From the IMG/VR virus record IMGVR_UViG_3300014202_000273, positions 1 through 32,661 of that record: 32,661 bases of DNA. One strand, written 5' to 3'. The notes below the pieces were generated by a model that saw only the letters and a list, made by a program, of their open reading frames with translations, searched no databases and was not told where the DNA came from. The stretch comes from a virus. Lineage: Duplodnaviria; Caudoviricetes. The position numbers and the translations under genes are program-made. Shown here piece after piece: positions 1-32,661 of the stretch. How positions within the stretch are numbered: the first letter of the stretch is position 1; each line of letters begins with the position of its first letter.

Positions 1-85
1 CGCGGCAAATTCAGCATGGACGATATCCGAAGCCGTCACGGTAGTGTTGCGGTTAAGGGTGTGGATAGGGCGCGGATAGCGGCTT
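1..85. repeat. Inverted repeat R, outer copy, left window edge (exact reverse complement of 11153-11237)
   Basis: 85/85 identity read by eye. It runs to the window edge, and identity ends inside the stop codon (TGA here, TAG in the other copy). Confidence 0.97.
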
Positions 86-87
86 GA
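1..87 (+). CDS. 3' end (partial) of a second copy of the J-domain gene
   Basis: Translates RGKFSMDDIRSRHGSVAVKGVDRARIAA*, identical to the C-terminus of 11151..11648(-). Confidence 0.9.
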   Translation, partial: RGKFSMDDIRSRHGSVAVKGVDRARIAA

Positions 88-93
88 ATGTGG

Positions 94-115
94 GCGGGGT
101 GTAAGCCCCGCTTTT
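94..115 (+). terminator. Rho-independent terminator (short U-tract, possibly leaky)
   Basis: GCGGGG-TGTAAG-CCCCGC-TTTT directly after the J-domain stop. Confidence 0.65.
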
Positions 116-128
116 AAAACTATTAGAG

Positions 129-581
129 ATGGAGACCGAAAAGATGAGCAAAAACATAATAGAGCAAGCGCTTAAGATAATGGAAAGCGAGTTCAAAGCG
201 GGCGGCGATAAATATAATTCCAGCCGATTAGTAGCCGACTATTGCAGATTGCAGATAGGCAATGAACCAGAGGAAGTGTTTGGCGTTCTGTTTATGAATA
301 ACCAGTTTGAAATGCTTTCGTTCGATAAACTGTTTAGAGGTAGCGTGACCGAGGCAAGCATACCGCCCCGAGCGATAGCAAGGCGCATGTTTGAATTGAA
401 CGCTAGCAGAATGGTTTTAACGCACAATCATCCGAGCGGTGATGTAACCCCGAGCAAGGCTGATATTGCGATAACAGAGAAATTTAAAGGGTTATTTAAA
501 GAGTTTGATTGTGTGGTGGTAGATCACATTATTGTTAGTGGTAAGAGTTCTTATTCTATGTCAGAGAGAGGGGATTTGTAA
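129..581 (+). CDS. radC: RadC-family JAB/MPN+ domain protein (short form)
   Basis: EEVFGVLFM...HNHPSGDVTPSKAD...DHIIV, the RadC JAB metal-binding motif. Confidence 0.93.
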   Translation: METEKMSKNIIEQALKIMESEFKAGGDKYNSSRLVADYCRLQIGNEPEEVFGVLFMNNQFEMLSFDKLFRGSVTEASIPPRAIARRMFELNASRMVLTHNHPSGDVTPSKADIAITEKFKGLFKEFDCVVVDHIIVSGKSSYSMSERGDL

Positions 582-736
582 TGACAGATTCAATAATAGT
601 AATAACGTGTATGCAGATATTCATGCTGTGGCTATTGCAAGTAGCAGAAACAATAAACTTCGGAAGCATTAGCGTACTAATAACTTTTTTCGCGCTAGTG
701 CAAATGTGGATGTTTGATAAGTGGGGTAAGAAATGA
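581..736 (+). CDS. Small membrane protein (51 aa; not in ORF track)
   Basis: MTDSIIVITCMQIFMLWLLQVAETINFGSISVLITFFALVQMWMFDKWGKK. TAATG overlap with radC and ATGA overlap with the next gene. Confidence 0.65.
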   Translation: MTDSIIVITCMQIFMLWLLQVAETINFGSISVLITFFALVQMWMFDKWGKK

Positions 737-915
737 AAAAGGTAGTTAACTACATAGTTGTAAATGGGGACGGCATAAACGACATAGGTCGAAGAGTAAT
801 GGACTATATAAAAGATGGCTGGCAACCATTCGAGAAACCGTTTATTTATAAAATATCAGAAAGCGCCAGCAACCTTTGGGCGCAAGCATTAGTTAAGTAT
901 GAGGACGATAAATAA
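733..915 (+). CDS. Small hypothetical protein, DUF1737-like
   Basis: YIVV...V.DYIKDGWQP...QALVK pattern. Translationally coupled to its neighbours. Confidence 0.65.
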   Translation: MKKVVNYIVVNGDGINDIGRRVMDYIKDGWQPFEKPFIYKISESASNLWAQALVKYEDDK

Positions 916-1145
916 TGACAAAGCAAAAATATGATGAATTGATGGGTATGCTCAAAAGCTACGATGAAAGCAATTTAAAAGAGCTATTTATCGATCTTGA
1001 TGACCCAGCACTTGCAGAGCGCATAGCTAATGTAGCCTACGCATTTGTCGAAACATGGGCGGATAAAGAAATCGAAAAGCACGAGCTATCACAAAACGAG
1101 GACGCGCTAGAAGTTGATAACGCTAGAAGGGTAAGGGAATTGTAA
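915..1145 (+). CDS. Hypothetical protein
   Basis: 76-aa ORF with TAATG coupling at both ends. Confidence 0.75.
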   Translation: MTKQKYDELMGMLKSYDESNLKELFIDLDDPALAERIANVAYAFVETWADKEIEKHELSQNEDALEVDNARRVREL

Positions 1146-1228
1146 TGATAAGTATCGAATTTATTCTCTGGTCGATGATAACTACCATATTAATAATCGG
1201 TATCTTTATAGGACATTATTTTTTATGA
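1145..1228 (+). CDS. Single-TM peptide (27 aa; not in ORF track)
   Basis: MISIEFILWSMITTILIIGIFIGHYFL. TAATG and ATGA overlaps. Confidence 0.55.
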   Translation: MISIEFILWSMITTILIIGIFIGHYFL

Positions 1229-1368
1229 AATCAAGATTGCTGAAAATGCTAGAACCTTTTTGCATAGTATTCATGGCTTTTTCAATTATAACATTCGCGG
1301 TGGCTACTGGAATGATCTTAGTAAAATTGCTTATTATTTTTAATGGTTATTTAAAATTGGGGGTTTAA
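1225..1368 (+). CDS. Small membrane protein (47 aa; not in ORF track)
   Basis: MKSRLLKMLEPFCIVFMAFSIITFAVATGMILVKLLIIFNGYLKLGV. Coupled start. Confidence 0.6.
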   Translation: MKSRLLKMLEPFCIVFMAFSIITFAVATGMILVKLLIIFNGYLKLGV

Positions 1369-1369
1369 G

Positions 1370-1543
1370 ATGAACAAACGAGAAGCAAAATTCATAATGC
1401 AATTACCCGATGGTTATGAATGGACTTTTGTTGATGATGGAAGGTTTTTGTGTGGGGCTTCTGCCGATAAAGAAGTTTTGCTATACGAAATTGTGAATGG
1501 TGAGTTAGTGAAACGCGAGCTAAAATTTCAAGAGGCTAAATAA
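1370..1543 (+). CDS. Hypothetical protein (57 aa; not in ORF track)
   Basis: MNKREAKFIMQLPDGYEWTFVDDGRFLCG..., with a GGGGG RBS. Fills the gap exactly. Confidence 0.7.
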   Translation: MNKREAKFIMQLPDGYEWTFVDDGRFLCGASADKEVLLYEIVNGELVKRELKFQEAK

Positions 1544-1765
1544 ATGAAATCTAACTGCTGGAAATACCCAAAGAAAGGTGAATTGCCAGAACTGAATACG
1601 ACCGTACTTTGTTTTACAGGCGGTGCTAGATTTGGCCAATACGAACTTGGCTCGATGGTGACAGATTCGACTGGTGAAGCTAATTGGCAAATGGAATATA
1701 GATCTACAGAATATGAAAACCCTATTGCTTGGTGTAACGTTCCTGACGTGCCGGAGTTTATATGA
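1544..1765 (+). CDS. DUF551-like phage protein
   Basis: W......ELPE....VL...IAW...P..PE pattern. Confidence 0.65.
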   Translation: MKSNCWKYPKKGELPELNTTVLCFTGGARFGQYELGSMVTDSTGEANWQMEYRSTEYENPIAWCNVPDVPEFI

Positions 1766-2049
1766 AATCAGAATTAATTAAAGCACCAGAATCTGACTGC
1801 TGTAAAGCCGCTATGCGAGTCGTAGGAACTGAAACAAAACACTATCGTTGCAACCATTGCGGTATGCCATGCGATCAAGCGCAAGAAGAAACTAAACCAA
1901 CCCATCAAGATGACGATAAGCGCGGAATTTTGGAAGGGTTAAAGTTAGCAAGAGAGGAAGTTATCAAAGGTTTATTTACTGAGCCAGTTTGCATTTCAGA
2001 TGTAGTCAAAGCAATAGACGAACTAATCGAACAACATTCAGGTGAATAA
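1762..2049 (+). CDS. Zinc-binding hypothetical protein
   Basis: SDCCKA...CNHCGMPC, with a GGAG RBS. Confidence 0.75.
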   Translation: MKSELIKAPESDCCKAAMRVVGTETKHYRCNHCGMPCDQAQEETKPTHQDDDKRGILEGLKLAREEVIKGLFTEPVCISDVVKAIDELIEQHSGE

Positions 2050-2238
2050 ATGCAAAGACGCACAATAACAGTAAAGTTTGAATACGATCTCGATGACCTT
2101 GAGCAATGGGTTGGAGAGGAATTATCAGACGCAATGATTGAATGGGTTTATAAGACGCTAGAGAAAGACATACCTACTATTGTAGAGCATACGATGAAAA
2201 GCCTTTTTGAAAGTGAACACCCATCTTTAGGAGAGTAA
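2050..2238 (+). CDS. Hypothetical protein
   Basis: 62-aa ORF abutting the upstream gene, with an AGGTG RBS. Confidence 0.7.
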   Translation: MQRRTITVKFEYDLDDLEQWVGEELSDAMIEWVYKTLEKDIPTIVEHTMKSLFESEHPSLGE

Positions 2239-2240
2239 AA

Positions 2241-2441
2241 ATGAAAATGATACGTTTTAACGAAGGTGTATTAATTAATCCGAAGAAAATAGAAGCCGTA
2301 ATGGTTGTAAAATCGCTAGGCGATTCTGCTGTAGTCGATGTTTGCTGTAACAGAATGTCATTTAACAGGCTTTTCGATACCTACGAAGAAGCCATGAGCT
2401 TTGCTGAGGCAATAATACTTGAAGTGGAGAAGTATGCGTAA
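2241..2441 (+). CDS. Hypothetical protein
   Basis: AGGAG RBS and TAATG coupling to the exonuclease. Confidence 0.75.
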   Translation: MKMIRFNEGVLINPKKIEAVMVVKSLGDSAVVDVCCNRMSFNRLFDTYEEAMSFAEAIILEVEKYA

Positions 2442-3271
2442 TGACAATTAGCCCCGGCGTTTACGCCACAATGTCAAATGACGAGTACCACGACCACAAG
2501 GAATCGCTTTCACGGTCGAGTATTCGAGACTTTGCGGATTGCCCCTATAAATATTGGGCTTTGCATCTTAACCCGCTAAGACCGCCAAAAGTGCGAACTG
2601 ACGAGATGATATTCGGTAGTGCGTTTCATACGTTTATTCTTGAAAACGACAAGTTTGATGATGAGTATTTTATCTTGCCCGAAAAGGTTTTTAAAAAGGA
2701 TAACCCCGAACAATATGAAATCAACAAAGCACTCGAAGAGGAAGCCGAAAAAACCAACAAAATCGTGTTGTCGCAAAAAGAATATATCACTTTGTGCGAT
2801 ATGCGTGATGCGCTCAATCGAGATGGACGAGCTATTGACCTTATCAAAGGCGCGGTTTACGAATCATCTTACTTTTGGAAAGACGAGGGAAGCGGGTTAA
2901 TGGTTAAGGCTCGCCCCGATATTCTCCATACCAACATGATAGTTGATTTAAAGACTATTGCAGACGCGTCACCGGAATCTTTTCGTAGATCGATGGTAAC
3001 GGGTGGATATCATTGGCAGGGCGCTATGATTCGTGACGGCGTTCGAGCGATAGAGGGTAGAGATATACCAAACGTGATTAATGTGTGCATCGAGAAAAAA
3101 TACCCTTACAGCGTTGGCATTTACTTAATTGAAGAATCCGCTATTGAAGTTGGGCAAGCTGAATATAAACACCACTTAAAAGGAATCAGGGAATGTATCG
3201 AGACAAACGTGTGGCCGGATTATGCTATCGAAACGGTGGGTTTACCAAAATGGTATGCGTCAAATTTATAA
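2441..3271 (+). CDS. RecE/exonuclease VIII-like PD-(D/E)XK nuclease (DUF3799-type)
   Basis: PGVY...SNDEYH...SLSRS, FGSAFH..ILE, E.SYFW, KARPD...IVDLKT, Y.WQ motifs. Confidence 0.9.
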   Translation: MTISPGVYATMSNDEYHDHKESLSRSSIRDFADCPYKYWALHLNPLRPPKVRTDEMIFGSAFHTFILENDKFDDEYFILPEKVFKKDNPEQYEINKALEEEAEKTNKIVLSQKEYITLCDMRDALNRDGRAIDLIKGAVYESSYFWKDEGSGLMVKARPDILHTNMIVDLKTIADASPESFRRSMVTGGYHWQGAMIRDGVRAIEGRDIPNVINVCIEKKYPYSVGIYLIEESAIEVGQAEYKHHLKGIRECIETNVWPDYAIETVGLPKWYASNL

Positions 3272-3339
3272 AACAGTTTTTGCTGAGTATGTTTTTTATT
3301 GGTTTTATTGTTTCAATAGCTTATTTTTATAGCAACTAA
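3250..3339 (+). CDS. Possible single-TM peptide (29 aa)
   Basis: MVCVKFIKQFLLSMFFIGFIVSIAYFYSN, overlapping the exonuclease 3' end. Confidence 0.4.
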   Translation: MVCVKFIKQFLLSMFFIGFIVSIAYFYSN

Positions 3340-3359
3340 TCACGCTACCGTGATACTAT
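3340..3359 (+). promoter_or_regulatory. Operator TCACGCTACCGTGA overlapping an extended -10 promoter (TG-A-TACTAT)
   Basis: Same TCACG-N4-CGTGA palindrome as at 11842-11877. Lies about 25 nt upstream of the gene at 3385. Confidence 0.65.
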
Positions 3360-3384
3360 AAAGCAACTTTTTAGGAATGAAGCA

Positions 3385-3678
3385 ATGCAAGAGAAAGATT
3401 ATCCCGAAAACTACACTCAAGAGTTAATTGATGTACAGAAAAAGATGGAAACGCTCCTTTATGATTGCGCTTATCACTCTTTCAGCGATGACCGTGTGCG
3501 AGTGGCGTTTATCCAAGACGTAGCAACTAACTTCATGGGCAACATGTTTTTAAGTGTAGCTAATGAAAAGCTAGGCGAGCCAGCAAAAGAAAAACTACTA
3601 GAGCAAGCAATGCACGGCTTTCAAAGCTGGGTACTACACCGAAAAATTGACCTAGAACAAAAAAAGGATATGCACTAA
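3385..3678 (+). CDS. Hypothetical protein
   Basis: 97-aa ORF with an AGGA RBS and TAATG coupling. Confidence 0.8.
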   Translation: MQEKDYPENYTQELIDVQKKMETLLYDCAYHSFSDDRVRVAFIQDVATNFMGNMFLSVANEKLGEPAKEKLLEQAMHGFQSWVLHRKIDLEQKKDMH

Positions 3679-4538
3679 TGACACAAGAATTAGTTATTAA
3701 AGATACGGGTGTTTTAGCCCGTGCCGAGTTAGATACACAGATTTCCACGGCTAAAGCCTACCCACGCGAAGCGCAGAAAGCTATCCAGTATGCAACCATG
3801 CTGGCTACCATGGACGAAGCTACTGCGCAAAGCTGTTATTACTGCTTGCCGAGAAAAGATAAAAATGGAAATAAAGTTGAGATTAGAGGCGGTTCGATTC
3901 GCTTAGCTGAAATTATTGCTAATGCTTGGGGCAATCTACATGCGGCTACTCGTATCATAGAAAACGATGGTAAAAATATCACTGCTGAGGGTGTTGCTTG
4001 GGATTTAGAAACTAACGTCAAAATATCGATGCAAAACAAAGTGTCTATTTGGTTTGGTGCTAAAGACGGCAAAGGCGGCTATCAAGCCAATGCTGATATG
4101 CAGACCATGCTGGCTAATGCGGCAAGCGCTAAAGCCCTGAGGAACGCAATTTTCAAGGTTGTGCCCAAGGCGTTAGTTGATATAGTCCGCGATAAAGCCA
4201 TGAGCTTTTCAATCGGTGACGTTAAAACTGTTAATGCCAAGGTTAAGGAAGTGATCGACAAGTTAAATAAAATGGGGCTTACCACCGAATCTATACTTGA
4301 ATACTACGGTTACGACAGCATTGGTAAAATTACACCCGCTGATTACACATCTTTACTAGGCGTTGGTACCGCGATTAAAGAGGGCTATATTAAGCCTGAG
4401 CAAGTATTTAATGTCGAAACCGATGATATACCCGGCATGAGTGCCGCTGAAAAAGTGCAAAACCTTTTAGCTGAAATAAAGCCAAAAGTAGATGCACAAA
4501 CAGGAGAAATTAATGAGAAAGACCGAAATTCTAACTAG
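3678..4538 (+). CDS. Conserved phage protein, putative single-strand annealing recombinase
   Basis: D.QISTAKAYPR / YYCLPR / G.SIRLAE....WGN motifs. It sits beside a RecE-like nuclease and ends in VDAQTGEI, typical of SSAP tails. The function is inferred. Confidence 0.6.
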   Translation: MTQELVIKDTGVLARAELDTQISTAKAYPREAQKAIQYATMLATMDEATAQSCYYCLPRKDKNGNKVEIRGGSIRLAEIIANAWGNLHAATRIIENDGKNITAEGVAWDLETNVKISMQNKVSIWFGAKDGKGGYQANADMQTMLANAASAKALRNAIFKVVPKALVDIVRDKAMSFSIGDVKTVNAKVKEVIDKLNKMGLTTESILEYYGYDSIGKITPADYTSLLGVGTAIKEGYIKPEQVFNVETDDIPGMSAAEKVQNLLAEIKPKVDAQTGEINEKDRNSN

Positions 4539-4731
4539 CGCCCAGGCGGCTGAAAAGTTGGGCGTCACGCCGGATTATATTCGCCGTTTGATTATGGATG
4601 GCAAGATCAAAGCCACAAAATTTGGCAATAGCTGGACGATGACAGCAAAGGATATTTCACACATTAAACGCAAGCGGTTAATTAAAAGTGAAGGGGATGT
4701 TACGAATGGAAGCGAGAGAGTCGATAAATGA
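4513..4731 (+). CDS. HTH_17 (excisionase/MerR-like) DNA-binding protein
   Basis: LTSAQAAEKLGVTPDYIRRLIMDGKIKATKFGNSW. The AGGAG RBS favours the ATG at 4513. Confidence 0.88.
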   Translation: MRKTEILTSAQAAEKLGVTPDYIRRLIMDGKIKATKFGNSWTMTAKDISHIKRKRLIKSEGDVTNGSERVDK

Positions 4732-4879
4732 TAGTTCTAAATTAGTGGCTCAGGCTATCGAGTCACTAAAATACGTTCCGACTAAGCAAGAGTTAAAAAC
4801 GTGGGATGCTGAGCGCAACACGCAAGAAGTTATAGTAATGCTCGAATTAGTTTTAGAAAAGTTAACAACAAATATGTAA
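4706..4879 (+). CDS. Hypothetical protein
   Basis: GGGGA RBS before the ATG at 4706. Confidence 0.65.
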   Translation: MEARESINDSSKLVAQAIESLKYVPTKQELKTWDAERNTQEVIVMLELVLEKLTTNM

Positions 4880-4892
4880 AAGGAAGTGATTT

Positions 4893-5006
4893 ATGCAATT
4901 AAAAAATATACTATTCGCATACTTTCGATGTTTTGCCTGCTACGCCTTAAGTAGCGGCAAACGAAAAGTGTGCGAGCATTGCGGCGCACGATTACCTAAA
5001 ACATAA
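4893..5006 (+). CDS. Small zinc-ribbon protein (37 aa; not in ORF track)
   Basis: CFAC...CEHCG, with an AAGGA RBS. Confidence 0.6.
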   Translation: MQLKNILFAYFRCFACYALSSGKRKVCEHCGARLPKT

Positions 5007-5026
5007 TTTAAATAAAGAGACCATAA

Positions 5027-5176
5027 ATGAAAGCTAGTCATGTTAAAAAAGCGTTAAAGTGTATTACTGTTATTGAAGCCAACGTCGCTAAGTTAAAAGC
5101 CCTGCTTGACGTTTCAAGTGTCGAAGCGGCGCCCGTTATGAAGCGTAAGAAGAGAAAGGCTAAAAGTAAGAAGTAG
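5027..5176 (+). CDS. Small basic protein (49 aa; not in ORF track)
   Basis: MKASHVKKALKCITVIEANVAKLKALLDV...KRKKRKAKSKK. Confidence 0.6.
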   Translation: MKASHVKKALKCITVIEANVAKLKALLDVSSVEAAPVMKRKKRKAKSKK

Positions 5177-5182
5177 ATTAAC

Positions 5183-5251
5183 TGGGGATAGCTCTGGAAG
5201 AGTACAGGGGTACTTAACCTGATGGCTGGTTCGATTCCAGCATCCCCACTA
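5183..5251 (+). tRNA. Degenerate tRNA-like element (pseudo-tRNA)
   Basis: Acceptor TGGGGAT/ATCCCCA, D arm GCTC/GAGT, anticodon stem CAGG/CCTG, canonical T arm GCTGG-TTCGATT-CCAGC. The anticodon loop is abnormal and no CCA is encoded. Confidence 0.65.
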
Positions 5252-5283
5252 AATCGCAAGGTGTTCCATCCACCTAATAGCCG

Positions 5284-5419
5284 CTTACAGAAGCGGGCGA
5301 TAAATCTGTAAGGAAAAAATATAACGTGTGCGTGTAAAGCGCGTTTACAGTGTAGATAAGGTTTTCTCGTCCATTATCCGTTTGCACTCAAGCCGACTGG
5401 CTGAATCCAGTCACACGTT
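5284..5419 (+). ncRNA. Structured ncRNA: hairpin plus cloverleaf-like domain (C4/CI-like antisense candidate)
   Basis: CTTACAGA/TCTGTAAG hairpin. AACGTGT/ACACGTT closes TGTAAA/TTTACA, a long middle arm and a T-loop-like GACTGG-CTGAAT-CCAGTC arm. Confidence 0.6.
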
Positions 5420-5447
5420 GTACCTTTAAAACGAAAAGGAAAGTGCC

Positions 5448-5666
5448 ATGGATTTCGATAAATTATCGACAAGACAATTAAAGAAAATCAGAAAGTTTCA
5501 CCGTAAGATTCGCAAGCTAGAAACCTCAAAGATACTACGCGCCGCAATTCACAATCTTATCGTCAAAAAGCAATTAAAATTCTACGTCGAACAAGCTAAT
5601 GCTTTCGGCAACTTAATTAACCGACCAACCAGAAACGAACGGAGAGCAATGCAAAATGTCAGATAA
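5448..5666 (+). CDS. Basic hypothetical protein
   Basis: AAGGA RBS; 72 aa, K/R-rich. Confidence 0.7.
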   Translation: MDFDKLSTRQLKKIRKFHRKIRKLETSKILRAAIHNLIVKKQLKFYVEQANAFGNLINRPTRNERRAMQNVR

Positions 5667-5811
5667 ATTAACCGAGCATGAACAAGGCTGGAATGATGGC
5701 AGACAAGACTTGTTAAAGTCGATGCTAGAGTTAGCAGAAAACACAGATTTAAAAACGGTTATACAGGCAATCAAAGAAGAGTTAGAAGAGTTAGAAGAGG
5801 ATAGCGAATAA
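5656..5811 (+). CDS. Acidic hypothetical protein (51 aa; not in ORF track)
   Basis: MSDKLTEHEQGWNDGRQDLLKSMLELAE..., with TAATG coupling. Confidence 0.65.
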   Translation: MSDKLTEHEQGWNDGRQDLLKSMLELAENTDLKTVIQAIKEELEELEEDSE

Positions 5812-6047
5812 TGGACAACCGCCTAGATTATATCGGTGGCTTTGAAGATGGCACCACCGAGAAGATGTCAGCATTACGCGCTAAGTTCATCGAGCTAGAT
5901 AACGAATTGCGTTTGCTTAGTGATATTAATAGCCACCAGTCACCCGCGCTAGGGCGAACAATTGCGCTTTCCCGCACACACCTAGAAACCGCCTCAATGT
6001 ACGCGATCAAGAGCCTGTGCTTAAAGCATGAGAAGAGACCAGAATGA
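5811..6047 (+). CDS. Acb2/Tad1-like nucleotide-sponge anti-defence protein
   Basis: Helical hairpin ending GRTIALSRTHLETASMYAIKSL, resembling the Acb2/Tad1 R..A...T.LE.A.M.A.K motif. The N-terminus MDN.....GF.D also resembles Acb2. Confidence 0.65.
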   Translation: MDNRLDYIGGFEDGTTEKMSALRAKFIELDNELRLLSDINSHQSPALGRTIALSRTHLETASMYAIKSLCLKHEKRPE

Positions 6048-6208
6048 CAGACAACAACAGAAAGGAAGTGCTAGAGATCATGACCAACTTACAGATTGCT
6101 CATGATCGTATGAAAAATATACCAGAGACTTATGCGCGTGATGAAGCCTACAAGCTGATCGAGCAAGCGCATGAAGCAACCAGTAAACTTTTATTGTCGA
6201 GGAGCTAA
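6044..6208 (+). CDS. Hypothetical protein (54 aa; not in ORF track)
   Basis: MTDNNRKEVLEIMTNLQIAHDRMKN..., with an ATGA overlap. Confidence 0.65.
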   Translation: MTDNNRKEVLEIMTNLQIAHDRMKNIPETYARDEAYKLIEQAHEATSKLLLSRS

Positions 6209-6210
6209 CC

Positions 6211-6498
6211 ATGACAAATGATAGACCGCAAGCAAATGAAGGTGAATCTTGGGAATTTGTTAGCCAATATCGCGGCGCCTTATGTGATCGTTTAAAAGTT
6301 GATGGCGGCTGGCTGTACCGTACAGGCACACCAGAGACTATCGCCATGTCATTTGTGCCTGATATTGATTTACAACGCTACCAGAGCCACCTCAGAGACG
6401 CGTACAAGCAGGGTTACAGCGCGGGATACATTGATGGTCACAAAGAAAGATCGCCAAGCCTTGACGAAATTCAGCAGGATAGGAGCGATATCCCATGA
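6211..6498 (+). CDS. Hypothetical phage protein
   Basis: GAGGAG RBS and an RLKVDGGWLYR..FVPD motif. Confidence 0.8.
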   Translation: MTNDRPQANEGESWEFVSQYRGALCDRLKVDGGWLYRTGTPETIAMSFVPDIDLQRYQSHLRDAYKQGYSAGYIDGHKERSPSLDEIQQDRSDIP

Positions 6499-6686
6499 GA
6501 GGCATAGAGGACAAGTACCCAGAAATGGAGCTAAACGCTGGAAGCTGGGAAATTACGTTCGTCGATCAGGGTTCCGGTAGCCGCTTAATCGGGCGCTACA
6601 CTTTCAAAAGACCAACGCTAATAACTCAAGTGGTACGGGTAGGATTCAAGATTTTCGAGATTCGTACTGATTGCAGAATGATATAA
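6495..6686 (+). CDS. Hypothetical protein
   Basis: AGGAG RBS and ATGA overlap. Confidence 0.7.
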   Translation: MRGIEDKYPEMELNAGSWEITFVDQGSGSRLIGRYTFKRPTLITQVVRVGFKIFEIRTDCRMI

Positions 6687-6689
6687 CTC

Positions 6690-7069
6690 AGTTTACGCGC
6701 ATCACAAAGGAAGTAAAGGATGCGCGTTTACCTTTCATACGATTGTCTATACCCAATCGCAATACAACAACAACCCTAAAACGGTATCGCTTTCTTTCAA
6801 GGACGAGGAGTTTATCGCCATTTCTTCCCAGTCGCAATAAAAAATAAACTAGCCATAACAATCATTTACTAAATGAGTGGCGTTTGATAAATTGCTCAGA
6901 TTGAATTTGCTTTGAAAGTGCTACGGGGTGGTCGCTAAACCACCCACAAGCTGGAATTACAAGGATTCCCGCATAGTAGCATCTCTTGATTTAAAATCAA
7001 TATTTAACACACAAAAAATACGCTTTTACCGCGTAAGGATTATTTACAGCCAACGCCAAAGGAATCTAC
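6690..7069 (+). promoter_or_regulatory. Long structured non-coding leader upstream of the replication initiator
   Basis: Hairpins ACGCGCATC/GATGCGCGT and CGATTG/CAATCG, and a junction GTGCTAC[GGGTGGT/ACCACCC][GGAAT/ATTCC]GTAGCAT. Confidence 0.55.
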
Positions 7070-7972: not shown

Positions 7973-8327
7973 TATTCCAGATTGGGTACATGATCTTTTT
8001 ATTTTGTTTTGTGCTAATTACGGCGCTGTATGGCTGGACACCGTTAATGACGAACGCGCCGAGCTTATAAAGCAATGCTTATGGCGTGATGTTATCGGCG
8101 TATTCAATGTGGATGTAATAAAGCAAGCCGCTAAGGAAGTTTTGGTTAAATGCCCAATATACCCGCCAAAAGTAGGTGAGTTTTATTCTGTGTGCCAAGA
8201 AATAGTGGAACGTGACAACAAACCTAAAATTCCTTGGGCAACAGATCTACTTTTAGAACAACGCGAAATAAAAAAAACTGAAATGCCGGATAGTCTTAGA
8301 AAACTTTTTAAAAATTGGCATAAGTGA
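7857..8327 (+). CDS. Helicase loader, lambda P-like
   Basis: Follows the initiator. LF......YG..W ... W...I..F ... YPPKVGEF motif. GAGGA RBS at ATG 7857. Confidence 0.7.
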   Translation: MNTTDNKPQSIKHLLKKINVSDNSEKHSTNTTESDHNGSIPDWVHDLFILFCANYGAVWLDTVNDERAELIKQCLWRDVIGVFNVDVIKQAAKEVLVKCPIYPPKVGEFYSVCQEIVERDNKPKIPWATDLLLEQREIKKTEMPDSLRKLFKNWHK

Positions 8328-8351
8328 AATACACAACTAGGGATATACTGA

Positions 8352-8594: not shown

Positions 8595-8595
8595 A

Positions 8596-9429: not shown

Positions 9430-9433
9430 GCAA

Positions 9434-9604: not shown

Positions 9605-9606
9605 AA

Positions 9607-9849: not shown

Positions 9850-9890
9850 TAATGGAATTGGTTATAACCTAAACACCAAGGAGTTTTACA

Positions 9891-10404: not shown

Positions 10405-10419
10405 TTCTAACACTCCAAA

Positions 10420-24632: not shown

Positions 24633-27600
24633 AACCGCTAAAGATATTGCCGATAAGTATTTGAATACCCCTAAAACGGAAACACCCGTTCCGGTTGATA
24701 TTCAGTATGATGAAAACGTACACCCGTTTTTTGAAGGGCAAGCGGTTACAAGTTTGGCGCCTAAGTATCAGCCGTCACCTAGTTTTTTTGAATCTGTAGG
24801 TCAGAGTTTTGTTCAAAATAATGATTTTGGATTAGCCTATAAGTTTTCAGCAGAACAAGAAAACCAAAATAATCCACTTTTTGACCCCGTACCTGAAAAC
24901 TGGAAAGTATCAGATGACGAATCAAACTTCGCAGGAATCCAGCAAAAGTATTATGGCTACATCATGGATGCTTCCGGTCCAAAAGATGCTAAGCGTCGCT
25001 ATTATCATGTTTTGGATTTACAAGAAGCGGATGATTATTACAACCGTGGTTCATTCTTAGCGCATTTGATTGGTGGTATACCCGCGGCATTATTAAGCCC
25101 AACTTCATTTATTCCAATGGCGGCAACCGTAAAGTATGCGCGACTAAGCACAACGATGCTTGAAAACATACCGAAAGTTGTTAGTGGTGTGGCAGGTTCA
25201 GCCGTTGCGCACGAAGCATGGGTGGAAACAAACAAAGTAGGTGGCAATCTTGAAGACTTCGCGCTCAACGCCTTTACAGACACTATTATGGGTACTGCTT
25301 TTATCGGTGCTGGCTTGGGGCTTGGTCATGGGTTTGACGGTCTTAAGTTTTGGAACGCCAGAGAACAAGTTAAGCTCAATTATGAGGGGGTGGATGTTAA
25401 GCCACTCGTTAATGAAGACGGCATAATTGAAAGATATGTTGCAAGCTCAAATACATTAAGCGCGGCTCGTGTTTCCGAGGCAGAGGCTTTTGTAAACTCT
25501 ACTATGGCTCAAACTGGGTTATTTGCAATTCCTAAAATTGGCGGCTGGTTTGGCAAAGGTGCTGGTAAAATTAATCCTATTATTCGTGGGTTAAATTCCC
25601 GCTTTCCTGTTATGCGCGGTTACGTTGATCGCATTGCAGATCATGGTCTTGTTACGGAAGGGAACATTGCTGGCAACGCTTCACCAGATAAGTTTGAAAT
25701 AATGATGGCTAATTTATCGGGCGATAATACCGCCATGTATTTACAGCTAAAGGGTTTGCACTTAGAGCGTAACGGCATCGAGCCAGGTAATGCCGCCATC
25801 AACTTGGTTGCTAAAACAAAAGCAAAGTGGAAAGGTGATGGATACACAGACGAATCAAAATTTGCTAATGAGATTGTTGATGTATTGATTAATGAAACGC
25901 CTAGTCCGCATGGTGCAGTTAATGAAGCGGCTAATATGCTTCGCACTAAAATGGATGAGAGTTACAAAGCATTTCGTGAAGCATACGGTTTGCCTGAGTC
26001 ATGGTTACCGCCTAAAACGTCCCGCGGCTTTTTATCGAGAGTCTATGATGTAGCGCAAATGAATCAGAGACCGGATGAATGGGAATCTATGTGGGTTGAA
26101 TGGTTAAAACATGCTGATGGCTTAATCAATTCTTACATGAAGCCTATCCGAGATTTAGAGAAACAAATTAAGCTCGATGAAGCTGTACATCAAAATTATA
26201 TACGCACACCAAATTTAACTAGCGCTCAGATAAAAGCCTCTGCCGATAAACTTTTAAACCAACAAAAGAAATTAAAGCAGATGAAAAACAAAGTTCAGGA
26301 TGAGATGCGCTCTAATGAAAATTTGCGTATGCACTTAGACGATTTTGGCGCGCTTTCTGCAAAAGAAGCGTCAGCGCTTAGAAAGCTAAAAAAGCCATTG
26401 AGCGAGATGAACAAAAAACTTAAAGCGGCTAGAGAGGCGCTTGCCAAGCATAAGTTTGAAATGATGAAAGCTAAGTCCAGCGCCTCTAAAGCTAAAACCA
26501 AAGAGACTGCCGTAAAGTACATGACAGAATATGACAAGCTAGAAAAAGGCTTATCAAAGCTAGAGGATGACGCTAGAGCATTGCGTGATTTGCGCGACAA
26601 AGAAACTGACCGCTTGCAAGAGTTAGTGCAGGACGGAAAAGTTGACCCAATTCTCTATGAGAAAATTCCCGATAGCCAATTAGTCAAATTTAAGAAAACG
26701 TCAGATCGTTTAAAGTTTAGAGATACTTTTGAATCTGAATTTCACATGCGTCAATCGGCTAAGGCTTACCATGAAACAATAACCAATCAAACTGCCGAAG
26801 ATACAATTAATCAGATTATGGGTAGTATGCTTGGACGTCATGGCGAGAATACTCTTAAAGAAAGAACGCTGATGATTCCCGATGAGATTTTGTATAAAAA
26901 CAATTTCCTATCAAAAAACCTTGGCGTTAATGTTATGAATTACAGAAATGTATTAGGCAGAAAAACATTCCTGAAAAATGTATTCAAAGACGTAACACTT
27001 GAGGGTGGTATCAAGCCTATTGTGCTTGAACTGGATAATCAAGCTAGAGGCATGAGAAATGCTATCACTGAAAAAATCAAATCAGTGAAAGCCAGCAAAA
27101 AGCCTGAAAAAGAAAAAGCCGCTGAGATTGCAAAGCTGGAAAAAGAAGCCCTTGATTTATCCAAAGACTTTAACAACACCAAAGAAGATATGAACCTTTG
27201 GTATAACAAAATGATGGGGCGCGTTAGCGGTAGTGCCAAGATGCGCCAGTTTGCCAAAGTTACCCGTAGCTTTGCGGCCAGCGTAAGGTTAGGAGCCGTA
27301 CCATTAACCATGTCTACAGATACCATGGCTATAGCTTTCAAGCATGGTTTATGGCCGCAAGTTCGTGACGGTTTATTACCAATGCTAAGTAATGCTTATA
27401 ATTTAATGAAGGGTGGCAAAGGCAATGGTTATGCTGAAAACGCAGGTCATGCAAACCTTGGATTAAACCATGCACTTTCCGGTTACTCAGATCGTAATTG
27501 GGCTGGTAGGTCACAACCTTATGAGCCAGTCGGCAACAAATTAGTTAGCGGCATGGAAAAGATGGGACAACTATCAGGCAACCTAGCTGGTACTAACTAC

Positions 27601-28467
27601 ATCGAAAACTTCCTGCAAAGATGGACTGCCTCGGTAGTTCAAAGCAAAGTTATTCGCTACATGCTGGATTACAAAGCTGGAACCTTATCTGCTAAGAATA
27701 AAGAAAAACTTTTAGTATATGGTTTAGACCCTGAAAAGTGGGCTGATCGTATGCTCAAGGGTTGGGAATCACGAGGTAAAGACGGCAACGGTATTGGCGG
27801 TTATCAAAGTCGTTACTGGGAATGGGCTGATCTTGAAGCCTCCAACAAAATGGCTGAGACAATTCAACGCGGCGTTCGTGACACAATTATTCGTCGCGGT
27901 ATGTTTGACGCGCCGTTTGCCATGGATGACCCAATGTTCAGTATTATTTTCAGTTTTAAAGGCTGGGTAATGGCATCGTTAACGCGCTACCTCACGCCTT
28001 TAATGCAAAGACCTGATGCTGAAAAATTGATTGGCACCATGTTAATGCTCACGGCTGGAGCGACCGTCACCCCATTGCGACGCCTCGCTAAAGGTGAAGA
28101 CCCTATTCAAGAAGACGATAATATGTTCTGGAACGCTATGGTCGATGGTGGTGTATTTAGTTCTGTCACCGATACATTAGAATATGCCAACGTATTAATG
28201 GGCGGCAACCTTTTAAAGGATGTTAAGAACGATAGATATGCTGAGCGCACAATAGCGGGTGCATTAGCTGGACCCGTAGGTGGTATGGCTGAGGATTTTG
28301 TACATATTATTAAAATGATGAGTAGTGGTAATTTCAATCAAAACGACGTCAATAAAATGGCGCGTTTGATTCCATTCACTCAATCATGGCACACACGCTA
28401 TCTTAGCAACAAAATGGTAGAGTCTTTTGGCTTACCAAAAACGTATAATGAAGCAAGCAGACAATAG
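24622..28467 (+). CDS. Large internal virion (ejection) protein, gp16-like
   Basis: 1281 aa with coiled coils, a C-terminal IFSFKGW / GP.GG / RLIPF pattern, and synteny. Confidence 0.75.
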   Translation: MENRTAKDIADKYLNTPKTETPVPVDIQYDENVHPFFEGQAVTSLAPKYQPSPSFFESVGQSFVQNNDFGLAYKFSAEQENQNNPLFDPVPENWKVSDDESNFAGIQQKYYGYIMDASGPKDAKRRYYHVLDLQEADDYYNRGSFLAHLIGGIPAALLSPTSFIPMAATVKYARLSTTMLENIPKVVSGVAGSAVAHEAWVETNKVGGNLEDFALNAFTDTIMGTAFIGAGLGLGHGFDGLKFWNAREQVKLNYEGVDVKPLVNEDGIIERYVASSNTLSAARVSEAEAFVNSTMAQTGLFAIPKIGGWFGKGAGKINPIIRGLNSRFPVMRGYVDRIADHGLVTEGNIAGNASPDKFEIMMANLSGDNTAMYLQLKGLHLERNGIEPGNAAINLVAKTKAKWKGDGYTDESKFANEIVDVLINETPSPHGAVNEAANMLRTKMDESYKAFREAYGLPESWLPPKTSRGFLSRVYDVAQMNQRPDEWESMWVEWLKHADGLINSYMKPIRDLEKQIKLDEAVHQNYIRTPNLTSAQIKASADKLLNQQKKLKQMKNKVQDEMRSNENLRMHLDDFGALSAKEASALRKLKKPLSEMNKKLKAAREALAKHKFEMMKAKSSASKAKTKETAVKYMTEYDKLEKGLSKLEDDARALRDLRDKETDRLQELVQDGKVDPILYEKIPDSQLVKFKKTSDRLKFRDTFESEFHMRQSAKAYHETITNQTAEDTINQIMGSMLGRHGENTLKERTLMIPDEILYKNNFLSKNLGVNVMNYRNVLGRKTFLKNVFKDVTLEGGIKPIVLELDNQARGMRNAITEKIKSVKASKKPEKEKAAEIAKLEKEALDLSKDFNNTKEDMNLWYNKMMGRVSGSAKMRQFAKVTRSFAASVRLGAVPLTMSTDTMAIAFKHGLWPQVRDGLLPMLSNAYNLMKGGKGNGYAENAGHANLGLNHALSGYSDRNWAGRSQPYEPVGNKLVSGMEKMGQLSGNLAGTNYIENFLQRWTASVVQSKVIRYMLDYKAGTLSAKNKEKLLVYGLDPEKWADRMLKGWESRGKDGNGIGGYQSRYWEWADLEASNKMAETIQRGVRDTIIRRGMFDAPFAMDDPMFSIIFSFKGWVMASLTRYLTPLMQRPDAEKLIGTMLMLTAGATVTPLRRLAKGEDPIQEDDNMFWNAMVDGGVFSSVTDTLEYANVLMGGNLLKDVKNDRYAERTIAGALAGPVGGMAEDFVHIIKMMSSGNFNQNDVNKMARLIPFTQSWHTRYLSNKMVESFGLPKTYNEASRQ

Positions 28468-28478
28468 GGATATCTACC

Positions 28479-30998
28479 ATGACAAGTGTAATTATCGATG
28501 ACACCCTTCCGTACACGCAGAGTATTGCTACAGCCGCGCAAACTGTTTTTGATACCAACTGGACTGTTGACGCCATAACCGATGTGGTTGTGTATGCCCG
28601 CGCCGATGGTGTGGCGCCGAATGACGTCACTCAAGTAGTTTCATCGATTAATTACACTGTTACTCTAATCGGCGTACAGCAGACTGTCAGGGTTACATTC
28701 TTGGTTGGGCGTACTGTTGACGATGTTATTACCATTACGCGCAACACCCCCGCAGATCGTGACAATATTTACATTAATACCAATTTTACCCCATCGATGC
28801 TAAATGGTGATTTTGGGCGTCAGGTTTTAATGATTCAGCAAAACGACCTTTACAACACCCAATTAACGCCGCGCTACAATACAAGCGCCACAATTGAGCC
28901 AGTAGTCGATACGATTCTACCCATTTTGATTGCTAGCCAGTCATGGCGCAAAAACGCAGGGAATACAGCGTTTGAGGGTTTTGTTGCATTAGGTCAGCCT
29001 GAGATAGACCCGATTACATTTATTGTAAAGACGGCAGACCCATTAGTGCCAGCCGCGCAATCGCTGGGTGCATTAACAACGGGTATTTTACTTAACACGG
29101 TTGTCGCAACAACTGGAACGCTTTCCATTAGTGCGCCCCTTACCTCGCTACATCTTGCGGGCATTGCCGCCGATCAATTCCCATACGGCACTGGTACTAA
29201 CACCTATGGAGTATCTGGCATTTCCGCATATAGCCGAACCTTATTACCAGAAGCAAGTCTTGCCGCATGGCAAACCGCTCTGGGTATTCCTGGGGGTGGC
29301 GGCGCTTACTTTGCCATTGCCAATAATCTTTCCGAAGGTGTGCCTGCAACCATGCGCACTAATCTTGGATTAGTCATTGGTACTGACGTACAAGCCTATG
29401 ATGCTACGCTTCAAAGTCTTTCAAGTCTTGGCACCATGTCCGATGTATTTGCTTACACGACTGGCGTCGATACATGGGCAGAAACTCCCATAACGGCTTT
29501 AGGGCGATCTTTGTTAGGTGATGCTAGCCAAGCTGACATGAACACTACAATTGGTTCCTTGCCTCTTGCTGGTGGCACCATGACAGGCAATTTAATCCTG
29601 AATGGTCCTGCAACTTTAGCAAGTCAGGCTGTCACGCTCTCTCAGCTTAATTCTGTGATCTTGAATGAGCAGTTAGCTTGTGTGGTAGCAACCGATACCG
29701 ACTTACCAACGTGGACGTATGACAACGGTGTATTAGGCGTGGGTGCAACCTTAACTGCCCCTAGCAATGGTGCATCGACTTTTGATGGCATTATTCCTAC
29801 TGATGGTCAGCGGGTATTAGTTTTATTCCAGACTACTAACCCAGCATGGCAGGGCGCCTATACAATCGTTCAGGGTACAGGCGGCACACCTACCGTATTA
29901 ACCCGCGCAACGGATTGGGACCAAGCCGCTGAAATGAACGCTGGCGATATTTTCTCAGTAGTCACGGGTACAACCTACGGCGCGTCACAGTGGATGTTTG
30001 CTCAGACTGCCGCTATTACTGTTGGCACCACCGCTTTGAACTTTACGCAATTAGCTGGTCAGGGCGCATTGCTTCGGGCGAACAACCTTTCTGATCTGCC
30101 TAGCCCATCAACCGCTAGAACTAATCTTGGCTTGGTCATTGGCACTAATGTTCAGGCTTATGACGCTACCTTGCAAAGTATCTCTGCGCTTGGTACTGCC
30201 GCAGACAAAATAATTTACACGACGGGTATCGACACATGGGCAGAGGCCGATATCACAGCATTAGGGCGCACCCTCTTAGCTGATGCAACCGCTTCCGATA
30301 TGCGCGATACAATTGGCGCGTCACCCTCAGCATTAGCTACCAATCAGATTTTTGTGGGTAGTGCTGGCGGTGTAGCCACAGCCGTTGCGCTGTCTGGTGA
30401 TGCTACAATTGCCGCTAGTGGGGCGTTAACAATTGCGGCTAATGCAATTACCACGACTAAGATTGCAGATAACAATGTCACTAATGCCAAACTTGCTGAA
30501 ATGGCAACCCTTACAATTAAGGGTAATAATACTGGCGGAACGACCGAGGCATTAGATTTAACGGTTGCTCAGGTTCAGGCTATGCTTGCGCCAGCGTGGG
30601 CAACTTTCACGCCAACTTTAACCCTTGTTGGTGGCGGCGGAAATGTTGTGCCAACTTACACTTCTGTTAGTACGGGAAGGTACGTAAGAGAAGGCAACAC
30701 AATAACAGCTATGATCAATTTTTCGAACACGGCTGGTGGTACGGCTGGCGCTGGCACTGGCCAGCTAACAATGGCATTACCAGTTACACCTGGAGCATCC
30801 TGTGTTGGGCAACTATTGCCAATAGGCCGCTTGGTACAAGGTGTTAATACATTTCAGCTATTAGCCGCAATTACGGCAAGCACTGCAACAGCGTCTCTGT
30901 TTTATCTGAATGGCTCTACATTAAATGTCGTCACTGGTGCAGATCAAAGTAACGGCATCAGAGTATTGCAAACTACATTAATTTATGAAGTCGATTAA
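28479..30998 (+). CDS. Tail fibre protein
   Basis: N-terminal adaptor-binding domain (ITITR.TP...LNGDF....MIQQ), Thr/Ala/Gly-rich repeated shaft units and a beta-rich tip. Confidence 0.88.
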   Translation: MTSVIIDDTLPYTQSIATAAQTVFDTNWTVDAITDVVVYARADGVAPNDVTQVVSSINYTVTLIGVQQTVRVTFLVGRTVDDVITITRNTPADRDNIYINTNFTPSMLNGDFGRQVLMIQQNDLYNTQLTPRYNTSATIEPVVDTILPILIASQSWRKNAGNTAFEGFVALGQPEIDPITFIVKTADPLVPAAQSLGALTTGILLNTVVATTGTLSISAPLTSLHLAGIAADQFPYGTGTNTYGVSGISAYSRTLLPEASLAAWQTALGIPGGGGAYFAIANNLSEGVPATMRTNLGLVIGTDVQAYDATLQSLSSLGTMSDVFAYTTGVDTWAETPITALGRSLLGDASQADMNTTIGSLPLAGGTMTGNLILNGPATLASQAVTLSQLNSVILNEQLACVVATDTDLPTWTYDNGVLGVGATLTAPSNGASTFDGIIPTDGQRVLVLFQTTNPAWQGAYTIVQGTGGTPTVLTRATDWDQAAEMNAGDIFSVVTGTTYGASQWMFAQTAAITVGTTALNFTQLAGQGALLRANNLSDLPSPSTARTNLGLVIGTNVQAYDATLQSISALGTAADKIIYTTGIDTWAEADITALGRTLLADATASDMRDTIGASPSALATNQIFVGSAGGVATAVALSGDATIAASGALTIAANAITTTKIADNNVTNAKLAEMATLTIKGNNTGGTTEALDLTVAQVQAMLAPAWATFTPTLTLVGGGGNVVPTYTSVSTGRYVREGNTITAMINFSNTAGGTAGAGTGQLTMALPVTPGASCVGQLLPIGRLVQGVNTFQLLAAITASTATASLFYLNGSTLNVVTGADQSNGIRVLQTTLIYEVD

Positions 30999-31021
30999 TC
31001 AAACTAAAGAGGAAGTTAAAA

Positions 31022-31327
31022 ATGTCACCCGAAGAAATTAAAAAGTTACAAGATCAAGTCAAAGGTTTAACGGCAAACGGTCAGGCTTTAAGAGAGCAAT
31101 TGCATGAGTTAACTGATTCATGCGCAACAGTTCGCACTAACCTGAATTTAATGAATCAGCATTACAGCGAAGCTATGGAAAAGAACAAACACCTAGTTCA
31201 GCTTAATCAGGTTTTAGAGTCGCAGGGTAAAGATTTGAATGCTGAAAACATGCGCTTGAATCAGAAGATTAATGAGCTAACTTCACTAGAGGCACCGTTG
31301 CCGCCAGCCGAAGAAGGTGTTAACTAA
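31022..31327 (+). CDS. Coiled-coil hypothetical protein
   Basis: GAGGA RBS and heptad repeats. Confidence 0.75.
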   Translation: MSPEEIKKLQDQVKGLTANGQALREQLHELTDSCATVRTNLNLMNQHYSEAMEKNKHLVQLNQVLESQGKDLNAENMRLNQKINELTSLEAPLPPAEEGVN

Positions 31328-32634
31328 TTTACGTTAAAATACCTTTTAGAAATCCATACCCGCACCAAGCGAGAATGCTTAAGTCGTTAGCACAAGACAA
31401 AAACATTCTCGCTGTAATTCATCGCCGCGCAGGCAAGGACATTTTTTGTACAGATGCTCTAACCTATCGCGGATTAAAAAGAGTAGGTACTCACCTATAT
31501 CTTTTTCCATTACACAAGCAAGCCCGCTCTGTTATCTGGCAGGGCATGGACTTTGAGGGTATTCCATTTCTAAATGCCGTACCCCATGCACTCATTGAAA
31601 AAAAGAATGAGGCTCGCATGGAGATTGATCTGTTTAACGGTAGCAAGTTAATCCTGGGCGGTTCGAACAACTATGATGGCTTGATGGGTACTAACCCCGT
31701 CACGATTATTTACTCTGAGTTTTCTCTGCATAACCCAATGGCTCGCCAGCATCTTGACCCTATCTTAATTCAGAATAAGGGAATCGAGATTCTGCAATAC
31801 ACGCCTCGTGGTATGAACCACGGCTTTGAAATCTACAACACCGTCAAAGACAATCCCGATTACCACATTGAGCATTTGAGTGTAGAGCAAACATTCAAGC
31901 ATGACGGCAAGCGTATTATCACAGACGAAGATATTGCTAGAGCAAAAGCTCGTGGCATGTCAGAGGAAATGATACGGCAGGAATTCTATGTAGATTTTGA
32001 AGTCGGCAACCTCGGCGCATACTACACGCGCGAGATGAGTGACATGGTGCGCGAAGGTAGAATTTTACCTATAAAGCCAGACCCCTCACTTCCGCTTCAC
32101 ACCATTTGGGATTTGGGCGGGACCGACGCAACCGCTGGCTTGGTGTATCAGATTGTCGGGAAATACATCCATATCTTGATGCTACTGCATGATACAGGTT
32201 TTGGTTTAAAGCATTACCTAGACCTAGCCGAGCGTTACCGTCAATCCGTTGGCTGTCGCTGGGGGCAACACTGGATGCCTCACGATGTTAAGCAAGAACA
32301 CCAAGGATGGGAACACACCGAGTCTCGTATCATGCAAGCTCGCAAGCATGGTTGGCAATTAATGGTTGTACCGAAGGTAAACTTCCAAGACGGTATCGAA
32401 GCCGTCAGATACATGTTCCCGCGCCTTAGAATCGATTCGCTCAACTGCCAGCAATTGCTAAGAGCAATACGAGAATATCAACGTCAGTTTAAAGAAGGTC
32501 AGGGTGTATTTTCTAAGATGCCATTAGAAAACTGGGCAGTACACATTGCAGATGCACTACGCTATCTCGCGCTAAACTATAAACGCCTCTACGACACCCC
32601 GCAAGCCCCTCACAAATACGAAACATCCCAGTAG
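31327..32634 (+). CDS. terL: Terminase large subunit (probable ATT start at 31327; first ATG at 31375)
   Basis: Walker A HRRAGKD, Walker B IIYSE, coupling motif YTPRG.NH, QEFY.DF, nuclease WDLG..D and H.ADALRY. Confidence 0.95.
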   Translation: MYVKIPFRNPYPHQARMLKSLAQDKNILAVIHRRAGKDIFCTDALTYRGLKRVGTHLYLFPLHKQARSVIWQGMDFEGIPFLNAVPHALIEKKNEARMEIDLFNGSKLILGGSNNYDGLMGTNPVTIIYSEFSLHNPMARQHLDPILIQNKGIEILQYTPRGMNHGFEIYNTVKDNPDYHIEHLSVEQTFKHDGKRIITDEDIARAKARGMSEEMIRQEFYVDFEVGNLGAYYTREMSDMVREGRILPIKPDPSLPLHTIWDLGGTDATAGLVYQIVGKYIHILMLLHDTGFGLKHYLDLAERYRQSVGCRWGQHWMPHDVKQEHQGWEHTESRIMQARKHGWQLMVVPKVNFQDGIEAVRYMFPRLRIDSLNCQQLLRAIREYQRQFKEGQGVFSKMPLENWAVHIADALRYLALNYKRLYDTPQAPHKYETSQ

Positions 32635-32661
32635 GCTTTTAAGCACAACACTTCCTCGTAC
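32575..32661. repeat. Inverted repeat R, outer copy, right window edge (exact reverse complement of 12236-12322)
   Basis: 87/87 identity read by eye, running to the window edge. Includes the last 19 terL codons and the stop. Confidence 0.97.

Follow-up and report, generated by a model that had tools for sequence, protein, structure and literature searches.

Genomes divided into two unique arms by a pair of inverted repeats have been described for several replicons. The plastid genome and the yeast 2-micron plasmid are circles in which an inverted pair sets two unique regions apart; both occur as two isomers and have been linked to double rolling circle replication (PMC3147054). HSV-1 (herpes simplex virus 1) also has two unique arms bounded by inverted repeats (PMC3147054, PMC3415443), and a switch to double rolling circle replication has been proposed for 2-micron, plastid and HSV DNA (PMC3147054). 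Among tailed phages, the Anabaena/Nostoc myophages A-1(L), N-1, Elbi, A-Lf14, A-Alj1 and A-Hlh1 carry one inverted pair of 400-700 nt around ~30 kb; both isomers coexist, as shown by polymerase chain reaction and read mapping, the repeats diverge between phages, and no recombinase has been assigned (10.64898/2026.02.14.705889). Table 6 of that preprint lists five further repeat-bearing phages (10.64898/2026.02.14.705889). The Burkholderia jumbo phage Matilda (Sarumanvirus) has a linear genome of 267 kb with three segments, two unrelated terminal repeat pairs (1.5 and 18 kb) and four isomers (10.64898/2026.10.21.760668). Here we describe a two-arm plan in an uncultured clade of podophages, starting from a stretch of 32,661 nt (hereafter the window), which is the entire IMG/VR record IMGVR_UViG_3300014202_000273. 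In the window, a repeat of 1,170 bp (R) separates an arm of early genes (A) from an arm of virion genes (B). The window is a podophage genome assembled from short reads; its closed form is very likely A-R-B-R' (33,659 bp), a layout seen whole in a related record (G051), and the two-arm inverted-repeat architecture is almost certainly real and clade-wide.

A previous interpretation of the window made from the letters alone (the sequence-only reading) had known of no precedent in tailed phages. This did not hold, since the two isomers of the Anabaena myophages and the four isomers of Matilda have been described. The Anabaena myophages resemble the clade in that they have one inverted pair, two large arms and repeats diverging between phages; in KU234533, our recomputation gave an inverted pair of 717 nt with 98.5% identity. 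However, these phages (68 kb) are unrelated to the clade, with one 36-aa match among 14 markers and a score below 0 for the conserved motif described below. Further, the repeat of A-1 is free of annotated genes and is flanked on either side by structural genes, whereas R of the clade carries genes, the terL tail and the motif, and parts early from virion genes. Matilda is similar to the clade in its dumbbell graph, stubs of k length, collapsed repeats with raised depth and genes in the repeats (expressed in Matilda), and probably in its orientation isomers. Unlike the window and G051, which have one repeat family and two arms in ~34 kb, it consists of a core and two terminal segments with two repeat pairs. 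The 11-kb L-region of halovirus phiH, bounded by insertion sequences in some variants (PMC6210493), is likewise an invertible segment in a tailed virus, and the G segment of Mu and the C segment of P1 have short invertase sites around tail-fibre genes (10.64898/2026.02.14.705889, 10.64898/2026.10.21.760668); none of these is a conserved whole-genome plan. Misassembled inverted repeats have been warned of in the single-genome case of SIO1 (PMC6775973). In our literature search, made largely outside subscription journals, neither the clade nor the motif was found described. What is new is a T7-type, LME-1-like podophage clade in which the repeat is the terL-to-early junction, contains genes as well as a conserved site, and forms a clean division between the early and virion modules.

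Window positions 1-85 are the exact reverse complement of 11153-11237, and 32575-32661 are that of 12236-12322; the two stubs run off the left and right window edges, respectively. Recomputation confirmed these stubs and their match to the ends of R, as the sequence-only reading had reported. The chance expectation for one 85-nt match is roughly 1e-40, and the other exact repeats of at least 16 nt in the window were just two short direct ones (5775/5784 and 7461/7494). The length of the closed genome is the sum A+B+2R, with A = 11,067, B = 20,252 and R = 1,170 bp, and this closure leaves the terL, J-domain and RadC reading frames intact. The GC (guanine plus cytosine) content of R is 49%, compared with 41% in A and 44% in B. 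The A-side boundary splits the stop codon of the J-domain protein gene (T/GA in the terminal copy, T/AG in the central copy). The B-side boundary lies inside terL; R' encodes the final ~19 TerL residues, which recur as an orphan duplicate in the central copy. The gene layout proposed earlier stood in that A is read inward from both R copies, and terL and the lysin gene point outward. It needed correction in that the boundaries fall within the J stop codon and terL, a plus-strand gene (12331-12576) reads from R into B, and the hairpin at the convergence of the A operons has its T-run on the plus strand only.

Both copies of the repeat were found whole in G051:C24 (34,725 bp; capsid 76% identical to that of the window), in the layout A-R-B-R'. 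The copies (6350-7418 and 18159-19227) are 1,069 nt long and differ at a single position, located three bases from the boundary. The arms measure 10,740 bp (A) and 21,847 bp (B); B wraps the contig ends, across which an open reading frame (ORF) continues. When a quadripartite genome is defined by two unique regions and one long near-identical inverted pair in one molecule, G051 has such a genome, and the four junctions imply the same for the window. The collapse of a second repeat copy in the window, as proposed before, is supported by the whole copies of G051, by five relatives with two stubs and by an R depth far above 1x in one comparable run.

Relatives were gathered via the J protein, TerL, capsid and motif, and 56 records, mostly picked for length and a subset of the hits, were fetched whole. 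With the window included, 48 of 57 records were above the clade threshold. A repeat (inverted, at least 60 nt, at least 97% identity) was present in 24 of the 48, and in 23 of the 29 clade records holding both terL and terS. Among the six lacking it, G019 and G021 are interiors of the repeat-bearing G016 and G020, and G001, G013 and G022 end short of the boundary; G052 is a genuine exception, as far as its coverage of 3.1 kb goes. Five relatives (G016, G020, G024, G036 and G056) showed two stubs as in the window, with R of 487-1,193 nt. The same layout recurs in related contigs, the check that the sequence-only reading had called for. TerL identity among the 24 repeat-bearing records had a median of 71% and a minimum of 58%, and A+B+2R was 31.9-36.4 kb in seven genomes. 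In a FastTree phylogeny of 30 records chosen for holding markers, repeat-bearing records were found on all deep branches. Neither the inverted repeat nor the motif was detected in 13 controls (five named phages and eight records outside the clade).

No public sequencing run contained more than 0.13 of the sampled window words, and contigs of ~90% relatives from four runs (X1-X4), compared with window 1-15,000, were used for depth and junctions. In X1, X2 and X4, J-gene contigs continue at 11152 into sequence like window 86-115, which is the left junction. In X3, the start of one contig, 30 nt inside the boundary between R and B, fits a graph branch at this place. The depth of an R-core contig in X2 was 225.1 compared with 59.4 for an 11,763-nt A contig, a ratio of 3.8x relative to the A arm only. 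In this one relative, R was thus well above 1x, but at 3.8x instead of the predicted ~2x.

From B to A, R consists of the terL tail, a spacer and the motif, followed by a promoter-like site and then the first early genes (Table 1). Because the promoter-like site and the first early genes lie inside R, the same putative promoter stands at each end of A. Beyond the motif, R differs among species, with other early genes and, in G051, a tRNA-Met gene; the window R searched by blastn against R of six relatives gave no match in five, while in the sixth the J gene aligned at 66%. Among the nine repeat pairs listed, the A-side boundary coincided with or adjoined a ribosome-binding site, a start codon or a stop codon in six; those of G024 and G054 were inside ORFs, and that of G016 was at an unexplained site. 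Decayed homology past the exact B boundary was not found in five aligned pairs, all of which were sharp, although G034 shows a small number of mismatches immediately within the boundary. For the J-domain protein (HPD motif), relatives of 50-68% occur in phages outside the clade; its gene is a mobile early gene that here lies within the repeat. The tRNA-Met(cat) gene of G051 is located at the B end of R in place of the terL tail, in two copies (6367-6441 and 19136-19210).

The motif scored positive in 41 of 115 sequences, once in each and twice in G051, with a matrix trained on 32 of its 41 hits. Three pattern scans of IMG/VR yielded 25 matches, all in clade records. The motif was 40-253 nt past the terL stop in 31 of 42 rows, and a TTGAC...TATAAT-like site followed it in 31 of 42, 30 of these at 148-234 nt. 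Its alignment is almost gapless, and it shows fixed spacing with imperfect dyad arms ~35 bp apart. We rejected a structured RNA, as there were no consensus pairs among 26 sequences and no Rfam match in the window. Since the motif is near-gapless, without RNA pairs or Rfam match, its behaviour is that of a DNA site bound by protein. We set aside, by eye, a short reverse-strand peptide (PVPHNS-like) over the motif, as its stop positions vary while the bases past them stay fixed.

T7-type genomes have a terminal repeat at the terL-to-early junction. The motif is a candidate packaging site because it sits at this same place. Further, with the origin probably inside rep, packaging becomes the foremost candidate role of the motif. 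That it is the recognition or cut site of the terminase is a possibility that we hold tentatively, at somewhat less than an even chance. We rejected the view that contig ends are physical termini: counted from the motif start, G050 and G053 both end at 136 nt, L090 at 41 and L083 at 169. The G050 end and the G053 start, which have the same dataset number, have 434 nt of R in common, one from the terL side and the other from the lysin side, and stop at the identical base. TerL did not permit assignment of a packaging class, with no match among solved structures and at most 35% identity to named phages.

Recombination between the copies appears to be ongoing, because they match within each genome while R diverges among species. 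G001, G002 and G003, strains that are at least 99.97% identical, contain three of the four possible paths (A-end x to terL, x to lysin and y to lysin, respectively). L308 and L309/G036, also strains of at least 99.97% identity, differ in the same way (x to terL versus x to lysin). Of the 13 records that include sequence of A, 11 had the pair of exonuclease and annealase genes; this pair is the likely agent of recombination, to judge from a family match and a predicted fold. The annealase model aligned moderately with RAD52 (VIA Z 8.5, root mean square deviation 4.6, 136 aligned residues), and annealases made up nine of the ten top Foldseek rows (best E 6e-3). A tyrosine recombinase was found in G051 only (1 of 115 sequences, itself) and no clade-wide invertase was found; an invertase was rejected as the agent on this ground. 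We consider it likely that the arms flip if the copies recombine. Homologous recombination via the exonuclease and the predicted annealase, with no invertase, probably both keeps the copies identical and flips the arms. Gene conversion would maintain the identity, and crossovers between the inverted copies would invert A relative to B, giving two isomers.

If the motif were the terminase site, virion DNA would read end-A-internal inverted end-B-end and would exist as four linear isomers. Same-orientation sites would stay one genome apart after any flip, with the unit length unchanged, and the promoter would adjoin the DNA end in either isomer. The replication origin is likely the set of palindromic repeats within the rep gene, as suggested by their sequence, and palindromes were also found inside putative rep ORFs of G054 and G056. 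The rep gene was at 0.20-0.45 of A in all eight genomes. A crossover when only one copy has been replicated could convert theta replication from an off-centre origin in A into double rolling circle replication and give concatemers for packaging; this switch is speculative and, in our judgment, doubtful.

The two copies could instead be real but fixed in orientation, or rarely flipping, the duplication serving only to double the early promoter and the dosage of the early genes. Conversion without crossover would explain the identity of the copies equally well, G051 shows one orientation, and the evidence for flipping consists of contigs. Identical strains nevertheless assemble both ways, assemblies are open at both stubs even with R of 487-539 nt (G024 and G020), an observation that depends on insert size, and comparable cyanophage repeats yield both isomers (10.64898/2026.02.14.705889); we accordingly regard fixed orientation as unlikely. 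The motif could also be a site-specific recombination site (FRT-, dif- or fimS-like) on which a recombinase of phage or host origin acts, much as in the 2-micron plasmid; its fixed spacing and dyad arms would be suitable for this, as would the 210-aa tyrosine recombinase encoded in A of G051 (E 6e-35). This explanation is quite improbable, given that the recombinase matches no sequence of the 115 except its own, that there is none among the 52 window proteins, and that identity of the copies reaches hundreds of bases past the motif, with boundaries that drift.

A genome split into two molecules, R'-A-R and R-B-R', would give the same assembly graph and ~4 R copies per arm copy, close to the ratio in X2. 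Many records, moreover, contain only B, with its ends inverted; inverted terminal repeats are the class given to 7 of 50. However, G051 is one contig with exactly two copies, and records of B only are expected from assembly breaks at R; stub lengths such as 77, 99 and 127 resemble assembler k values, and we know of no segmented tailed phage. We regard this explanation as very improbable. An artefact, either fold-back chimeras from amplification or a mixture of two strains in one sample, could be entertained insofar as the reads of the window itself lie outside the analysis. It is largely refuted and its probability is negligible, since the same gene-anchored boundaries were found in 23 of 29 clade records, two copies are whole in G051, the junctions were reproduced in other runs and none of the 13 controls had the repeat.

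Several observations weigh against the architecture and its recombination as we propose them. G052 has neither motif nor terL remnant in the 3.1 kb past its lysin gene, and the motif is nowhere in the record. The ratio in X2 is above both the predicted 2x and the 3x maximum from terminal redundancy. G051 displays one isomer only, and contigs in both orientations do not prove isomers, as the short-read path across a repeat of 0.5-1.2 kb can be arbitrary. G056 lacks both homologues of the window pair, though a RecT match is present, and the identification of the annealase is moderate. The off-centre position of rep is weak evidence, as most positions would be off-centre. Further, no places at which DNA molecules start or stop were listed for the run contigs. 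G052 might represent an ancestral single-copy state, but it nests among repeat-bearing records. A tail-fibre-like module occupies G052:C36 1-3100, past the lysin gene where R would be expected, and its extra genes resemble tail-module genes of B elsewhere.

Besides many small genes, arm A carries those for RadC, the ExoVIII-like nuclease, the endonuclease and the lambda-O-like initiator. In G016 and G020, the counterpart of the endonuclease is RusA. Family scans detected no integrase, invertase or polymerase among the 52 window proteins. A 78-aa protein (5811-6047, plus strand) matched the Acb2/Tad1 hairpin domain PF24729 with E 3.5e-7, above the cut-off, and is a candidate anti-defence nucleotide sponge. 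ARAGORN predicted a 67-nt tRNA-Ser(act) at 5183-5249 in the ORF-free gap 4732-5447; Rfam gave no match, and the gene may be degenerate. G skew on the coding strand was strong just downstream of both R promoters (1-1500, +0.27; 10500-12000, -0.21 to -0.24) and faded inward. In a contig of run X3 (record 10), RadC (window 92-577) was joined in the same direction to genes from the opposite A end (window 10526-10907), which suggests gene movement between the two early operons. Arm A of G054 includes a CsrA-family regulator gene (22987-23271, L273:2987-3271; PF02599, E 5e-15), and that of G051 has ankyrin-repeat and HD-domain genes as well as the tyrosine recombinase; G051 gave no match to the window lysin. 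Neither RadC matches, which were uninformative, nor the bins holding G051 and G052, whose labels were unrelated, were accepted as indicating a host.

Arm B is a T7-type virion module in T7 order (portal, scaffold, capsid, tail tubes, internal virion proteins, fibre and TerL). Named phages reached at most 35% identity in TerL and 36% in the capsid. The nearest characterised relative by gene content is the Legionella phage LME-1 (KT271770; portal 27%, capsid 30%, TerL 29%, exonuclease 34%), a short-tailed T7-like phage (PMC12407071) that has the virion gene order of the window. Unlike the window, LME-1 has neither inverted repeat nor motif, and its terS homologue faces terL, whereas terS precedes the portal gene in the window.

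Table 1. Features of the window (positions in nt; strand as annotated).
Feature	Position	Strand	Basis or remark
Stub of R', A-side end	1..85	+	Last J-domain gene codons, boundary within its stop codon; same junction in contigs of three other runs
Arm A	86..11152	.	Genes of early function, recombination and replication, running inward from each R copy
Exonuclease VIII / RecE-like nuclease	2441..3271	+	phrog_412 E 6e-75; DUF3799
Predicted single-strand annealing protein, 286 aa (RAD52/Red-beta/Sak fold)	3678..4538	+	Model pLDDT (predicted local distance difference test) 78.8; next gene after exonuclease
Lambda-O-like replication initiator (rep)	7070..7972	+	phrog_270 E 1e-27; internal palindromic repeats 7459-7524
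Endonuclease, weak Holliday-junction-resolvase match	9124..9429	+	phrog_93 E 1e-8, phrog_5702 E 1e-4
Hairpin and T-run at convergence of both A operons	10231..10264	+	Hairpin 10231-10255, by eye; absent from terminator scan list
J-domain protein gene in R	11151..11648	-	PF00226 E 1e-11; two copies in closed genome
R, central copy of 1,170-bp repeat	11153..12322	-	Exact stub matches
56-aa first early gene in R	11648..11818	-	ORF
Sigma70-type promoter-like site TTGACA-18-TAGTAT, toward A	11856..11885	-	Top row of promoter scan; scan overall without excess over shuffles
Clade-conserved cis motif	11985..12059	-	Core 12023-12059: RCTG-N16-AGTT-N7-ACCGGA, then C-tracts; candidate packaging/terminus site
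Orphan duplicate of last terL codons	12263..12322	-	Sequence comparison
Arm B	12323..32574	.	Lysis, packaging and T7-type virion genes; markers as in LME-1
Conserved 81-aa gene, reads from R into B, faces lysin	12331..12576	+	tblastn matches in 44 other sequences of 115
Probable endolysin	12530..12997	-	31% identity, E 5e-12, to annotated ZP6 endolysin
Probable terminase small subunit (helix-turn-helix, HTH, protein), label inferred	13060..13707	+	Weak HTH matches; Atlas lead 0.82 only
Portal, scaffold and major capsid genes	14085..17738	+	Family matches
Terminase large subunit (terL), last 60 nt in R'	31375..32634	+	phrog_2 E 3e-16
Stub of R', B-side end	32575..32661	+	Exact reverse complement of 12236-12322

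The layout of the clade, with one repeat pair, is plastid- or 2-micron-like, and would be HSV-like only if the virion ends were inside R. The repeats of HSV hold duplicated early genes and packaging signals. As a further plastid likeness, the G051 repeat carries a tRNA gene. In contrast to the clade, in which no clade-wide recombinase was found, the 2-micron plasmid uses Flp-FRT, and neither plastid nor 2-micron DNA is packaged into virions. HSV-1 possesses an exonuclease and annealase pair, UL12/ICP8, that has been likened to Red and RecET (PMC3415443, PMC3147054); the pair of the clade is comparable by family match and predicted fold. HSV-1 has its ends within the repeats and its four isomers have been shown, whereas the layout of the clade is known from contigs, and we claim no homology. 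The clade may have converged on the herpes simplex plan, with terminus, early promoter and first early genes duplicated in inverted orientation, four linear isomers, and annealase-driven flips leading to end-free double rolling circle concatemers; as a whole, we consider this less likely than not.

Large-scale isomerism in tailed phages has been described only recently, in cyanophages and Matilda, and without a mechanism. The clade adds more than 20 divergent podophage lineages with a clear repeat anatomy of terL tail, conserved DNA site, promoter and first early genes. The purpose of the repeat thereby becomes testable, whether as packaging site, second early promoter or double rolling circle switch. 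Further, the repeat breaks short-read assemblies; most clade records are half-genomes, are one copy short or are classed as having inverted terminal repeats, and the plan is hidden in databases. If the ends do lie in R, a bacterial virus would provide a small model for herpesvirus isomerisation.

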